Positions 35,242 to 38,783 of a DNA stretch of 64,000 nt are shown here, piece after piece. The position numbers and the translations under genes were made by a program. Below the pieces are notes generated by a model. It saw nothing but the letters and a program-made list of their open reading frames with translations. It had not been told where the DNA came from and did no database searches. Origin of the DNA: Phycisphaerae bacterium (GTDB taxonomy: Bacteria > Planctomycetota > Phycisphaerae > UBA1845). Numbering within the stretch: the stretch's first letter is position 1; each line of letters begins with the position of its first letter. The stretch is from contig DAORAL010000003.1 of NCBI GenBank assembly GCA_035344155.1, forward strand, positions 132,402 through 196,401, read 5' to 3'.

Positions 35242-35562
35242 TCATTTTGAAAACCGACTTTCGATGCAGTTGATGATGTCGGCAAGGTGGGGTTCAGCCA
35301 CCTGGTAATAGACCTTTCGCCCGTCGCGTTCGCTGGTGAAAAACCCGCACCGCTGCATCAGACGCAGATGCTCGGAGGCGACGTTATCGGGGATGCCGCA
35401 GTCCTCGGCCAACTCACCGACGGTGTACCGCCCGGAAAGCAGCATCTGCACCATGCGAATCCGAGCGGGATGGGCGAGCACCCGCAAGCACTCAGCCGCC
35501 TGCCCCAAGGACTCGGCCCCAAGCTCAACAGGCTTCCTGGATTTTCGGACCGCCCTGGCCAT
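35242..35562 (-). CDS. ArsR/SmtB-family repressor, BigR-like (two-Cys sulfide/persulfide sensor type)
   Basis: It has the winged HTH LRVLAHPARIRMVQMLLSGRYTVGELAE. One Cys lies in AAECLRV and a C-terminal Cys in INCIESRF. It heads the operon that contains the blh-like gene. AAGGAG precedes the ATG. Confidence 0.7.
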   Translation of the reverse strand: MARAVRKSRKPVELGAESLGQAAECLRVLAHPARIRMVQMLLSGRYTVGELAEDCGIPDNVASEHLRLMQRCGFFTSERDGRKVYYQVAEPHLADIINCIESRFSK

Positions 35563-35583
35563 CCTAAGCTCCTTAATGTCAAT

Positions 35584-35603
35584 ATATCGTAAGATGACGA
35601 TAT
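35584..35603. promoter_or_regulatory. Inverted repeat ATATCGT-N6-ACGATAT in the divergent promoter region
   Basis: It lies 22-41 nt upstream of the bigR-like ATG, in an unusually AT-rich stretch. Confidence 0.4.
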
Positions 35604-35764
35604 GTCAAGTGGAAATCTCGAAATATTGATCGCGTGGGCAAAAACACGGATGGGGGCCTGTTGTGGGCTGTCGCCAGCGGGAAATGAACCGATGCTTTCG
35701 AGGCCCACTACATGAGCGGACCAATTCGGTGCATGGCCCATTGGGGTGGTCTATACTCAACGTG

Positions 35765-36229
35765 ATGACGCTGATACCAAGATCAATCAAGCGGTGGCTG
35801 GGGGCTCGATCTGTGTTTCGGATGTTTATGTTGCTCGGGGGATTGGCAGCATGTCTGTTCGTTGTGACTGCGTGGTTGGTGAGTTTGTACTGGCGAATAG
35901 GATACGCGTCTTTAGAAATCGAATTCCAACTTCATGCGGGTGTGGTGTGTTTCTTGTACCTACCGGGAGGAGACATACTGCACGAGGGCGGTTGGTCAAT
36001 GACGCACAGCGAATCGAGCTTGGCCAAGCACTGGTGGATCAAAACGTTGGACTACAATCCATCATCCATGTGGATGATCCCGCTATGGTTGTTCATCGTG
36101 CCGTTCCTACTCGCGACATTGGTCGCATGGCGAAGCAAACCTGTTCGACTGAACGGCTGCATTCGATGTAATTACGATCTAACGGGCAACGAATCCGGCA
36201 TCTGCCCAGAATGTGGCGGGAAAATATGA
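35765..36229 (+). CDS. Zn-ribbon membrane paralog 1 of 5
   Basis: TM1 is FMLLGGLAACLFVVTAWLV and TM2 is MIPLWLFIVPFLLATLVAW. The C-terminus reads CIRCNYDLTGNESGICPECG. Confidence 0.7.
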   Translation: MTLIPRSIKRWLGARSVFRMFMLLGGLAACLFVVTAWLVSLYWRIGYASLEIEFQLHAGVVCFLYLPGGDILHEGGWSMTHSESSLAKHWWIKTLDYNPSSMWMIPLWLFIVPFLLATLVAWRSKPVRLNGCIRCNYDLTGNESGICPECGGKI

Positions 36230-36639
36230 TTCGCAATTCGATCATTGTGCTATCGATTCTTCTGGTTGTGCTTGCGGGCGGCATGTGGATTGCAAGTTTC
36301 GGTAGCAGAATAACGGCACATAGTTCAAGAGTAGGTGACTTTCAATACTTGGTGTATTTCGAGTCGGGGCATTGCTATTTGGAGAAAAGCAACATCTGGG
36401 TTTGCTCGTTTTGGTGGCCGGCTTCTTGGTATTGGGAGAACAGGGGGCTTGCGGGGGCAATGATCAAGTTTCCTCTTTGGGCTCCATTCCTCATGTTTTG
36501 CATCCCCCCGGCCGTCGCATTCGTCCAGGGCCCACTGCGTCGTTACCGTCGGCGCAATCGCAATCAATGCATCCAGTGCGGCTACAGCCTTACGGGAAAC
36601 ACATCGGGTATTTGTCCGGAGTGCGGGATGCAGGCATGA
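36226..36639 (+). CDS. Zn-ribbon membrane paralog 2 of 5
   Basis: It starts MIRNSIIVLSILLVVLAGG and has ...FPLWAPFLMFCIPPAVAFVQGPLRRYRRRNRNQCIQCGYSLTGNTSGICPECG. It overlaps gene 1 as ATGA. Confidence 0.75.
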   Translation: MIRNSIIVLSILLVVLAGGMWIASFGSRITAHSSRVGDFQYLVYFESGHCYLEKSNIWVCSFWWPASWYWENRGLAGAMIKFPLWAPFLMFCIPPAVAFVQGPLRRYRRRNRNQCIQCGYSLTGNTSGICPECGMQA

Positions 36640-37256
36640 TCCGAAAATCTGCAATCATATTTCTCACTTTGTGTTTCATCGCCTCGGCTGGATTGTGTGT
36701 GGCGAGCTACGCAACCGCAATCAAATGGAAAATTGGCGATCCCGTTCTTTTGTTCGATCGTCAGGCATTGGTCGTGTCGATCGATTCGGGAAGAATGGTG
36801 GTCAATTGGGGACGGCGCGATGAATGGAAATCCGAGGACGGGCGTATCATTCACTGCTATTTCTCATTCGGCGAATACGTGCCGCCAAACAATCCGATTC
36901 CAGGCGTCCGCTACGGTCTTCAGCAAATCTACATCACGGGTAGGACGTCATTCAGGACGGAAAAACCAGAGCGAGCAACCTTTGTTACTCGACCGGGCGG
37001 CATCAATACAAATGGAATAGTATTCGAATTGCCAACCTTAATCCCCATGCAGGATCGGGCAACAAGAACGGAACTCACGATTTGGATTGCGATGTGGCTT
37101 CCAATTGCACTATTCGGAATCTTCCCTCTGTTCGCTTTCATCTACGGCCCGCTGCGTCGTCGCCGTCGTCGCAAACACAATCAATGCCTTCGTTGCGGTT
37201 ATAGCCTTACGGGCTTAACTGAGCCTCGATGCCCGGAATGCGGTGAAGAAATATGA
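36636..37256 (+). CDS. Zn-ribbon membrane paralog 3 of 5
   Basis: It starts MIRKSAIIFLTLCFIASAGL and has ...WLPIALFGIFPLFAFIYGPLRRRRRRKHNQCLRCGYSLTGLTEPRCPECG. It overlaps gene 2 as ATGA. Confidence 0.75.
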   Translation: MIRKSAIIFLTLCFIASAGLCVASYATAIKWKIGDPVLLFDRQALVVSIDSGRMVVNWGRRDEWKSEDGRIIHCYFSFGEYVPPNNPIPGVRYGLQQIYITGRTSFRTEKPERATFVTRPGGINTNGIVFELPTLIPMQDRATRTELTIWIAMWLPIALFGIFPLFAFIYGPLRRRRRRKHNQCLRCGYSLTGLTEPRCPECGEEI

Positions 37257-37807
37257 TCCGGAAGGCGATCATTCTGGGACTCACGACGGTTGGTGCTGCG
37301 AGTGCATTATTCTGGATCACCAGCGCAGTAGTTGGCCCTCTTCGGTAGGAATTTGCAGGCACCGAACGAGGCGTCTTGTTCGAAATCGACGGTGGACGAT
37401 TCGAATTGGCATACTTCGACAATCATCATTCTGGACAACACAGATACCCGCATGTGGTCCCCAGAATCAAGCTCGACATTCCCGCATTCAGAGGCCAGGA
37501 TTTGTGGCAGAGAAGGTATCGTTATCGTGTCAATTCCAGGTTGCACGAAAGCCTCTACTTCTTCAGATTCGATGAAACAACTCATCATCCTTATCCGGCA
37601 TTCTCCTCGCTTTCGTTCGTCGCTGGCGTACCTGCTTGGTTGGTGCAACTGACGTTCACGCCTTACCCACTTATTGCCTTCATTCGTGGCCCATTGCGTC
37701 GTTTTCGCCAAAGTCGTCGTCGCAAACGCAATCAATGCGTCCATTGCGGGTACAACCTGACGGGATTGCCTGAACCCAGATGTCCCGAATGCGGTGAGAA
37801 GACGTGA
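37253..37807 (+). pseudogene. Zn-ribbon membrane paralog 4 of 5, interrupted by an in-frame TAG at 37346..37348
   Basis: MIRKAIILGLTTVGAASALFWITSAVVGPLR is followed by TAG. The same frame then continues EFAGTERGVLFEIDGG...GPLRRFRQSRRRKRNQCVHCGYNLTGLPEPRCPECG. It overlaps gene 3 as ATGA. Confidence 0.65.
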
Positions 37808-38328
37808 TTCGAAGAACGGTTATCATTGCCTTGACGGTGGCAACCGCAACCACGGGCATCGTGGCTATTGTCGGCGCTTGTCATCCAACCCATTGGGGCT
37901 TCGTATCGGGAACGCACCTATTTTCATTTTGCGCAACTGGCATGAAGGGCGGATTCATATGGGAAGACCACGACACACATTCAAACGCAATGTCGCTTGC
38001 GGGGCTGCACAACCTTTGGCGCCCCATGGGGCTGGATGGTGAATTTAAATTCATCTGGCGTCGGAAGATAACGAGAGATGACTCTTCGCATTCAGGGCGA
38101 TACTCTGTGCGTTCATTTGTTAGGACTTGGATAATCATGCCTCTTTGGATTCCGTTCCTGGCATTTGGCATCTTTCCCGCGATTGCTTTTGCGCGCGGAC
38201 CATTCCGCAGATGGCGCCAGCCCGGCGATGGATATTGCATTCGCTGCGGTTACGACCTAACGGGAAACGTCAGCGGTGTTTGTCCTGAATGCGGTTCGCC
38301 TGTCAGTTCAACAATTTCCCATCTTTGA
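37804..38328 (+). CDS. Zn-ribbon membrane paralog 5 of 5
   Basis: A GTG start overlaps the gene 4 stop (GTGA). It begins (M)IRRTVIIALTVATATTGIV and has ...MPLWIPFLAFGIFPAIAFARGPFRRWRQPGDGYCIRCGYDLTGNVSGVCPECG. Confidence 0.75.
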   Translation: MIRRTVIIALTVATATTGIVAIVGACHPTHWGFVSGTHLFSFCATGMKGGFIWEDHDTHSNAMSLAGLHNLWRPMGLDGEFKFIWRRKITRDDSSHSGRYSVRSFVRTWIIMPLWIPFLAFGIFPAIAFARGPFRRWRQPGDGYCIRCGYDLTGNVSGVCPECGSPVSSTISHL

Positions 38329-38783
38329 ATCGGTCGCTATTACATTTATTGCGTCTTGCCTGCTCACAACCGTGACAGTTGAAATCGGAGCGGTCATGTC
38401 GATAGCGTAATCCGGTACCGGGTTACCAAGCGAATCTCTAACCTGTTTCCGTTTACTCACACAAAACGGATTCGGTGATTCTGCGATTTATGGCATGCCT
38501 ATTGATTGCCTGTGAACCCGTCTGGTCGGACGGAATGCACGCTTATTTGTCTTGCTCCATTGCACCGGTTCAATTCGGTGGATTGGATGTGCGGCTTTTG
38601 GTGTCCGTTCGATTGCGTATGCATTGCGGCGTGGTTGCGCATGGTTTCGGACCTTGCGGGCGGCGTTCACGTTTTCAATCGGTTTGCCCGCTTCACCGAT
38701 AGTTCAAGGGATAACGGTTCGGTATATACCGCAGGACGTGAGAAACTCCCATCGCCAGTCAACGCGCACAATCGAATGATGGC

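Follow-up and report, generated by a model that had tools for sequence, protein, structure and literature searches.

We describe here an array of tandem genes for small membrane proteins at positions 35765–38328 of a 64-kb stretch of Phycisphaerae DNA, the whole of which is called the window. The array consists of five consecutive units on the + strand, designated g1–g5, which were read and translated directly from positions 35400–38500. An earlier reading, made from the letters of the window without database searches (the sequence-only reading), had described five tandem paralogs; five units are indeed present, but g4 is broken by an in-frame TAG, leaving four intact. The units and the interruption are listed below, with product lengths in amino acids (aa) and transmembrane segments abbreviated as TM.

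35765..36229, + strand: g1, 154 aa from the ATG at 35765, start uncertain; the divergent founder copy
36226..36639, + strand: g2, 137 aa; the minimal family member
36636..37256, + strand: g3, 206 aa; the largest predicted periplasmic insert, with 127 aa between the TM segments
37253..37807, + strand: g4, 184 codons, with an in-frame TAG within
37346..37348, + strand: the TAG stop, codon 32 of g4
37804..38328, + strand: g5, 174 aa, GTG start; short Arg tract (RRWRQ only)

Each unit overlaps the next by 4 nt, start codon upon stop codon, and the overlaps fall exactly where they had been reported, at ATGA 36226, 36636 and 37253 and at GTGA 37804.

Kyte–Doolittle hydropathy, with a 19-residue window and a threshold of 1.4, gives two hydrophobic segments, TM1 and TM2, in g1, g2, g3 and g5, separated by loops of 62–127 residues; basic residues precede TM1 and trail TM2 in all four. 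The shared architecture attributed to all five copies holds for these units but not for the g4 open reading frame (ORF), which lacks TM1. This frame is uninterrupted only from TTG 37376 (143 aa), and the TM2 region of g4 contains no 19-residue window that reaches the threshold. Gene callers either pass over g4, reporting a 93-aa ORF on the opposite strand instead, or recover no more than the 143-aa remnant. An identical TAG is present in the NCBI assembly GCA_002338715.1 (L088) and in the Logan assembly of SRR609198 (L089), two assemblies that were possibly built from common reads, and g4 is probably a decaying, pseudogene-like copy.

At the N-terminus, a MIRK-type start leads into TM1 in g2 (MIRN), g3 and g4 (both MIRK) and, after its GTG start, g5 (IRR). 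TM2 carries the motif P-L-W-x-P...[YF]-P-x-[IV]-A-F, and this is followed in g2–g5 by G-P-[LF]-R-R and an Arg run. The Arg/Lys run had been ascribed to every copy; it is found in g2, g3 and g4, but is short in g5 and degenerate in g1. This last unit has TM1, a predicted periplasmic region, TM2 and the C-terminal ribbon described below, and keeps the P-L-W of TM2; downstream of it, WRSKPVR (WRSKPVRLNG at full length) stands in place of G-P-[LF]-R-R and the Arg run. Its N-terminus is a sequence of 20 basic-rich residues, unlike the MIR-type starts, and the upstream starts chosen by gene callers lead to products of 166–188 aa.

Beyond the basic cluster lie 25–40 residues that contain a putative zinc ribbon, and all five units end in C-x2-C-[GN]-Y-x-L-T-G-x5-C-P-E-C-G. 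The positions of the two cysteine knuckles, with the type of loop between them, are as follows.

36158..36217, + strand: g1 ribbon knuckles, CIRCNYDLTGNESGICPECG, N-type loop
36568..36627, + strand: g2 ribbon knuckles, CIQCGYSLTGNTSGICPECG, N-type loop
37185..37244, + strand: g3 ribbon knuckles, CLRCGYSLTGLTEPRCPECG, L-type loop
37736..37795, + strand: g4 ribbon knuckles, CVHCGYNLTGLPEPRCPECG, L-type loop
38236..38295, + strand: g5 ribbon knuckles, CIRCGYDLTGNVSGVCPECG, N-type loop

A six-frame scan of the window finds the motif five times, every time inside the array, in agreement with the near-invariant C-terminus that had been seen in all five copies. The motif is not a product of chance, because a related ribbon pattern gives 130 matches in 1.2 Mb of related loci and none in the reversed translations. 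The loop between the knuckles is five residues long in 258 of 261 cases. Two discrete types of it are seen, N-x-[ST]-G-h in about 79% and L-[PT]-E-P-R in about 15%, and the window has both. Strict alternation of the two types along arrays was considered and rejected, the successions in an L-biased sample being LL 13, NL 12, LN 7 and NN 4. In an alignment of 108 homologs, the sample used for all values of residue conservation given here, the four cysteines are 100% conserved, as the sequence-only reading would have it, and the ribbon residues as a whole are 91–100% conserved. AlphaFold builds the region as paired short strands, with predicted local distance difference test (pLDDT) values of 79–93 over g5 and g2. 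We infer that the ribbon binds zinc.

Conservation extends to other parts of the protein. M1, I2, R3 and K4 are 89–99% conserved, as is, at 89%, a near-invariant glycine after TM1 (G46). P113, W115, P125, A128, G132, P133, R135, R136 and R138–140 are 88–99% conserved; TM2 has four near-invariant prolines together with aromatic residues, and R-G-P-L-R-R-x-R-R-R is conserved to 88–99%. By contrast with the two ends of the protein, on which the paralogs can be aligned, the middle cannot be aligned: pairwise BLAST of the paralogs reveals similarity only in the last 50–70 residues and, weakly, at the N-terminus, and no similarity is detectable between the middle regions of the five.

AlphaFold models were made of g5 and g2, each with a family alignment, that of g2 consisting of short members. 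The g2 model has a mean pLDDT of 84.4, helices at residues 2–24 and 85–111 and a ribbon at about 90; the g5 model has a mean pLDDT of 70, helices at 2–26 and 115–131 and a ribbon at 79–89. Both hydropathy and the two models predict two TM helices, and the orientation proposed earlier, with the N- and C-termini inside and the variable part outside the membrane, fits the hydropathy profile, the charge pattern and the models. In g2 the second helix extends across the G-P-L-R-R-Y-R-R-R stretch. Between the helices, the model has long strands at 29–36, 39–46, 49–56 and 76–83, a short strand at 67–70 and a low-confidence insert at 58–64, and the strands within 29–56 are modelled at a pLDDT of about 88–90. 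In view of these strands and of the conserved glycine, the ‘variable’ region is predicted to be a conserved beta-meander scaffold that holds a paralog-specific insert. The highly divergent middle described previously is thus borne out in so far as the paralogs have no similarity to one another there, but it appears to contain a common beta-meander with a near-invariant glycine inside.

The overlap of neighbouring units is a feature of the family and not of the window alone. Of 28 pairs of adjacent family genes on one strand in other genomes, 16 share the ATGA or GTGA overlap. An overlap of 4 nt means that codon 2 of the downstream gene starts with A, and position 2 is I, K, T or R in 16 of the 16 overlapping pairs, which fits this constraint. 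The C-G codons of the ribbon are G-rich and lie 10–14 nt upstream of the next start, where they could serve as a Shine–Dalgarno-like element; the commonest tail length, three residues after C-P-E-C-G, is found in 27 of 92 ORFs. Some neighbouring units are fused outright. About 30 of the 150 best hits to a profile of the conserved C-terminal module have two to four complete units per ORF (for example P0121, P0124, P0128 and P0214), with no stop codon across the units, and topology would be preserved on fusion because each unit is predicted to begin and end in the cytoplasm. A Rosetta-stone argument from these fusions suggests that neighbouring paralogs work together. Within the array itself no terminator-like site was found on the + strand, and this, with the overlaps elsewhere and the fusions, is consistent with the single transcript and coupled translation that had been proposed for the locus.

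The family is very large. With a profile built on the five paralogs, more than 2,228 proteins are recovered, mostly of 130–210 aa, at E-values of 1e-25 to 1e-65, and every source-named homolog among them is a ‘hypothetical protein’ from metagenome-assembled genomes (MAGs) of Planctomycetota or Phycisphaerae. An exhaustive hidden Markov model (HMM) search, in which a 59-position module spanning TM2, the Arg run and the ribbon was compared with 50%-identity clusters, matched 8,621 of these at E<=1e-10; at E<=1e-3 the number rises to 66,770. An HMM search of the kind suggested by the sequence-only reading recovers a huge family and no family of known function; the long family hits in Pfam scans are fused units only.

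To sample distribution and neighbourhood, representative genomes of GTDB were scanned with one narrow ribbon pattern, yielding 80 loci, nearly all of them from Planctomycetota MAGs. The number of copies per 20-kb locus is one in 35 loci, two in 17, three in 4, four in 1 and eight in 1. Further separate ribbon clusters occur at about 14 per Mb of the seeded loci, a rough and biased figure that points to tens of ribbon loci per genome. The largest array (L025 4362–9833), on a contig of a Phycisphaerae MAG, packs eight family ribbons into 5.5 kb; one of them lies on the strand opposite to the other seven, N-type and L-type loops are mixed, and MKRR-start variants occur. One family locus (L017, JANQQE010000024.1) is on a contig binned as an Alphaproteobacteria MAG, a possible case of mis-binning or rare transfer, the other labelled loci being from Planctomycetota. 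The commonest neighbours are a sulfatase (8 of the 80 loci), an ABC ATPase (7) and an extracytoplasmic function (ECF) sigma factor (6), and a fixed operon partner was ruled out, the recurrent neighbours being generally abundant planctomycete gene families. No relatives of the family were found in IMG/VR viral contigs, GenBank (INPHARED) phages or PLSDB plasmids.

The ribbon itself extends further than the two-TM hairpin. Among the fetched loci, multi-TM proteins of 155–290 aa carry the same knuckle at the extreme N-terminus and are often in tandem (L054, L057 and L084); elsewhere the knuckle is found between TM segments, is C-terminal on an unrelated multi-TM protein in L063, and once precedes a domain with a weak NUDIX match. 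Families with an N-terminal ribbon (for example MSTLHCPECGYNLTGLPENRCPECGKDFDP...), followed by three to six TM segments and often arranged as tandem triplets, were found in L052, L054, L057, L060, L073, L076, L077, L080, L082, L084 and L085, and Pfam recognises none of their TM parts. An ORF in L068 that contains CRHCGYSLTGLPEARCPECG has the order ribbon, one TM segment and leucine-rich repeats (LRR_6, E=1.7e-13), a layout that looks like that of a receptor with the ribbon as its only cytoplasmic part. As the ribbon takes varied positions on unrelated proteins, we conclude that, judged by sequence, it is a phylum-wide module on many membrane proteins and is not specific to the hairpin, and that the array in the window belongs, as one subfamily, to a larger group of membrane proteins of Planctomycetota whose common ribbon appears to be on the cytoplasmic side.

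Comparison with related strains reveals that the content of the array is not fixed. In close-relative metagenome contigs, the flanks are 93–97% identical to those of the window and the array content is different. A four-gene array lies there between the same ArsR and CHASE-kinase genes (L004 3118–5157; also L001–L003, L005 and L006); its g1 ortholog is followed directly by a g3 ortholog, g2 being absent, and then by two unrelated members of the family, of 151 and 157 aa. The ATGA overlaps are kept, and the breakpoints fall within the conserved modules. The last 25 residues of the fourth gene are identical to the g5 tail, and homology between the window and the close relative restarts at 38245, within the ribbon codons of g5. 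The g1 ortholog has 84% protein identity, unevenly distributed: codons 1–78 have no non-synonymous divergence (dN=0) and a synonymous divergence (dS) of 0.055, and codons 101–154 have a dS of 0.67, which marks them as a recombination tract because it is ten times the background. The possibility that this chimeric g1 is a g1/g2 recombinant was rejected, as its 3' end remains g1-like.

The orthologs that are retained are well conserved. That of g3, represented at NCBI by MEZ6083210.1, ‘hypothetical protein [Phycisphaerae bacterium]’, is 97% identical with a dN/dS of 0.18. A more distant relative (L087) has a g5 ortholog with 75% amino acid identity, whose dN/dS is 0.17 over the whole protein and 0.13 over the periplasmic part; the values for the flanking ArsR and YgaP genes are 0.08–0.20. 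The retained orthologs of g3 and g5 are under purifying selection. The array of this more distant relative (L087 6839–8513) has three genes, the g5 ortholog and two other members upstream of it, and lies next to an ArsR/rhodanese/TauE/dioxygenase operon; its right flank consists of polysaccharide-synthesis genes, with no CHASE kinase there. Its first gene encodes a 243-aa multi-TM protein with a degenerate internal ribbon (CDHDLTGSISGACCECG) and an intact C-terminal one. When about 320 family members were compared, each periplasmic region matched its own orthologs only. Selection and matches together indicate that the periplasmic domains are functional and yet peculiar to each paralog. Taken together, the purifying selection, the turnover of arrays and the restriction of matches to orthologs indicate that diversity arises by gain and loss of paralogs and by exchange of cassettes at the conserved ends, and not by rapid point substitution.

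The surroundings of the array in the window are as had been stated. Gene annotation places a divergent operon of the sulfide type on the left, with genes for ArsR, rhodanese/YgaP, TauE and a Lactamase_B–rhodanese protein, and a CHASE hybrid kinase on the right. Ahead of the ArsR gene is the only strong sigma-70-like promoter of the region, on the minus strand at 35608–35581. Between its -35 and -10 elements sits a perfect 7-6-7 inverted repeat, ATATCGT-AAGATG-ACGATAT (35584–35603), which is kept in the close relative and in L087 and is probably an ArsR/BigR-type operator. A TATACT hexamer at 35752–35757, 7 nt upstream of the g1 ATG at 35765, forms part of a stretch that relatives conserve, reading TATAGT in L087. 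Were it a -10 element, the g1 message would be leaderless or nearly so and the upstream starts of the gene callers would be wrong. The GC content is 0.49–0.54 over the array and downstream spacer (35750–38750) and 0.56–0.64 in the flanking genes; for the array taken without the spacer it is 0.50–0.54, against 0.57–0.63 in the flanks. The spacer between g5 and the CHASE hybrid kinase (38329–38783) comprises 455 nt of non-coding DNA, 95.7% conserved in the related strain, in which a simple scan finds no terminator-like site and Rfam no family; the window as a whole has neither Rfam families nor tRNAs.

Searches among known families were unrewarding. Pfam and NCBIfam scans of the five proteins return only generic ribbon matches below threshold, the best scores against their cut-offs, in bits, being 19.0/27.3 for DZR (PF12773), 18.9/25 for Zn_Ribbon_1 (PF13240), 16.9/30 for DUF7129, 18.1/32 for rubre_like_arch and 19.1/80 for HVO_2753. 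PADLOC gives no hits and PHROG only matches at E>=0.11. In a PDB sequence search with the module profile, only 6ydh_A aligns over the entire ribbon (E=4e-4); matches of TGEKPYKCPECG to C2H2 fingers in that search were set aside as linker coincidences. A Foldseek search of PDB with the g5 model yields nothing significant (best E=3.3). Membership of the zinc-binding anti-sigma (ZAS) factors was also considered: the five proteins have no H-x3-C-x2-C motif and no zf-HC2 hit, the window has no sigma gene beside the array, and an ECF sigma gene is near only 6 of the 80 family loci. In the full-text literature, nothing relevant was found on CPECG, on planctomycete or Phycisphaerae zinc ribbons, or on paralogisation. 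The earlier statement that no function has been characterised for this motif or architecture is consequently upheld across Pfam, NCBIfam, PADLOC, PHROGs, PDB sequences, Foldseek and the literature and, by homology, no characterised family appears to include the array proteins.

We tentatively interpret the locus as a co-expressed, strain-variable operon of four intact paralogs and one interrupted paralog, which belong to a very large family of predicted inner-membrane hairpin proteins restricted, as it seems, to Planctomycetota. With similar reserve, we favour a role of the products of the locus as transmembrane adaptors or receptors whose tails dock to a common cytoplasmic partner, neighbours co-assembling. 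Both ends of each protein would be cytoplasmic, the four-residue basic N-terminus (MIRK) leading into TM1, to be followed by the periplasmic beta-meander with its paralog-specific insert and then by the TM2 rich in proline and aromatic residues (P-L-W-x-P...Y-P-x-I-A-F). TM2 would run on as an Arg-rich helix (R-G-P-L-R-R-W-R-R-R) that ends in the four-cysteine zinc ribbon. In such a scheme the constant Arg helix and ribbon would form a docking handle for one partner, which may be a protein scaffold or a nucleic acid, and each periplasmic domain would bind its own envelope or external ligand. The 4-nt overlaps would ensure stoichiometric co-translation, making hetero-oligomers of paralogs probable, and the repertoire would be altered by duplication, loss and recombination in the conserved 5' and 3' modules.

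Several observations weigh against this interpretation. The gene neighbourhoods yield no candidate docking partner for the tail, none of the proteins has homology to a signalling domain in Pfam or NCBIfam, and no neighbouring gene is conserved among the 80 loci. Within the array, g1 is without the Arg tract and g4 is broken. The periplasmic region of g5 is poorly modelled (pLDDT 44–65), and the better g2 model finds no analogue in PDB (Foldseek best E=0.07, TM-score 0.25). Some of the fused ORFs, which come from metagenomes, may be artefacts of assembly or sequencing. Finally, the ribbon families of ZitP and GltJ, to which we compare the array below, give no Pfam match at E<=10.

The tail could instead contact nucleic acid directly, the Arg helix and ribbon binding RNA or DNA (rRNA or the ribosome, mRNA, or the nucleoid) as a membrane tether. 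We consider this unlikely, and give no more credence to the variants in which it anchors translation or the chromosome at the membrane, or acts as a membrane-bound regulator, with the periplasmic part as modulator. Five to seven Arg/Lys residues stand directly ahead of the ribbon, which has a weak, sub-threshold likeness to ribosomal L37e, RNA polymerase subunit P and HVO_2753-type fingers, and in some marine YidC proteins, one of them from a planctomycete, the basic C-terminal tail binds ribosomes. However, all such matches are under the family thresholds, g1 and g5 are conserved without a full Arg tract, the N-terminal versions of the ribbon often have no adjoining Arg run, and no conserved target gene is nearby. 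More improbable is a repertoire for conflict, in which immunity, exclusion or decoy proteins would act against phages or delivered toxins and the periplasmic face would be engaged in an arms race. The variable content of the array between nearly identical flanks (93–97%), its GC content below that of the flanks and the tandem paralogs with orphan variable domains, which are typical of immunity arrays, would all be accounted for; yet PADLOC and PHROG give no hits, the viral, phage and plasmid collections (IMG/VR, GenBank phages, PLSDB) contain none of these proteins, no toxin, Rhs or secretion genes are among the recurrent neighbours, and the retained orthologs are under purifying, not diversifying, selection.

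A slightly fainter prospect is a hetero-oligomeric two-TM channel or pore of MscL-like hairpins, TM2 lining the pore and an Arg/ribbon collar gating it. This would make sense of the predicted hairpin, of the unusual conservation of TM2 with its four near-invariant prolines, and of stoichiometric gene coupling and fused subunits, but neither the sequence nor the fold resembles that of any channel, 35 of the 80 loci are singletons, and the same ribbon is carried by unrelated multi-TM proteins. It is very unlikely that the C-terminus is a processing or sorting signal at which a membrane protease cuts near TM2, releasing or transferring the periplasmic domain and freeing a cytoplasmic ribbon fragment. 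A motif (P-L-W-x-P), a TM segment and a basic cluster are present in that order and strongly conserved, the N-terminal hydrophobic segment could be a cleaved or uncleaved signal, and the family is large, paralogous and variable in its passengers. Against this, a conserved ribbon of 25–30 residues past the basic cluster has no equivalent in known signals, no match to PEP-CTERM or related NCBIfam models and no recurrent sortase-like neighbour were found, and MIRK and TM1 equal TM2 in conservation, pointing to a stable hairpin. Least probable of all, in our estimate, is a zinc–thiolate redox or persulfide sensor tied to the sulfide-detoxification operon, in which loss of zinc on persulfidation or oxidation would signal sulfide stress in the envelope. 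Zn-Cys4 sites can act as redox switches, and in the window, the related strain and L087 alike the array adjoins a divergent operon of ArsR, rhodanese, TauE and persulfide dioxygenase-like genes. This neighbourhood, however, is found in none of the 80 loci of other genomes, the dioxygenase cluster being confined to the window and its close relative; the ArsR operator-like repeat belongs to the promoter of ArsR and is about 160 nt away from g1; and so large a family is unlikely to be dedicated to one stress.

A bolder form of the adaptor or receptor reading, which we regard as unlikely, would make the ribbon a Planctomycetota ‘address tag’ that recruits tens of membrane proteins per genome to one cytoplasmic machine, with the MIRK arrays as combinatorial hetero-oligomeric periplasmic receptors whose subunits are reshuffled between strains. 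The machine may be, for example, a scaffold that organises the invaginated cytoplasmic membrane, or a membrane-bound tether for ribosomes or the nucleoid, and the two loop types (N-x-S-G-h and L-P/T-E-P-R) could encode two docking specificities.

In Planctomycetota the envelope is unusual, the membrane is invaginated and a very large proportion of the genes is unannotated. With at least 8,600 clusters at 50% identity for the core module and the wider use of the ribbon, the family ranks within the phylum among the larger groups of uncharacterised membrane proteins; it is covered by no Pfam or NCBIfam model, and no paper on it was found in the full-text literature. If the tail is a common docking handle, its partner would show how membrane proteins are organised or wired in a manner peculiar to this phylum, and identifying that partner would annotate tens of thousands of proteins at once. 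If the proteins are simple structural anchors, the definition of the family would still be useful, though of modest biological interest. The locus is a clear natural example in which cassettes are replaced between conserved modules at the 5' and 3' ends of the genes, and the family-wide ATGA signature and Rosetta-stone fusions predict hetero-oligomers.

Three known systems invite comparison. Exosortase and sortase signals (PEP-CTERM, LPXTG) resemble the array proteins in having a proline-containing motif, a hydrophobic helix and an Arg cluster at the C-terminus, and in belonging to large paralogous families with variable passenger domains. They differ from them in that the array proteins have a conserved zinc ribbon past the basic cluster and a conserved N-terminal anchor, and PEP-CTERM and related NCBIfam sorting models give no match at E<=10. 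The C(P)XCG micro-proteins of Haloferax (HVO_2753, PDB 6YDH) have the same two knuckles, C-x2-C-G and C-P-x-C-G, but are soluble, shorter than 70 aa and devoid of TM segments, of an Arg helix and of a periplasmic domain. Only the planctomycete module has the invariant Y-x-L-T-G and a loop fixed at five residues, which set it apart from generic ribbons. Most haloarchaeal C(P)XCG proteins bind zinc and several do not (PMC11241148).

The closest parallel in design is with ZitP of Caulobacter crescentus, whose ribbon binds PopZ (PMC5182065, PMC5182063), and GltJ of Myxococcus xanthus, whose ribbon binds MglB (PMC11135422). In these proteins, too, a small four-cysteine ribbon is tethered by a TM segment at the cytoplasmic face, with a periplasmic domain opposite. 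Their ribbon, however, is N-terminal, of another sequence type and attached to a single TM segment, whereas that of the array is C-terminal on a two-TM hairpin, and they are single-copy proteins without the Arg tract, tandem arrays or variable cassettes. We conclude that ZitP and GltJ, which do not appear to be homologous to the array proteins, offer the best analogue for how these might work.

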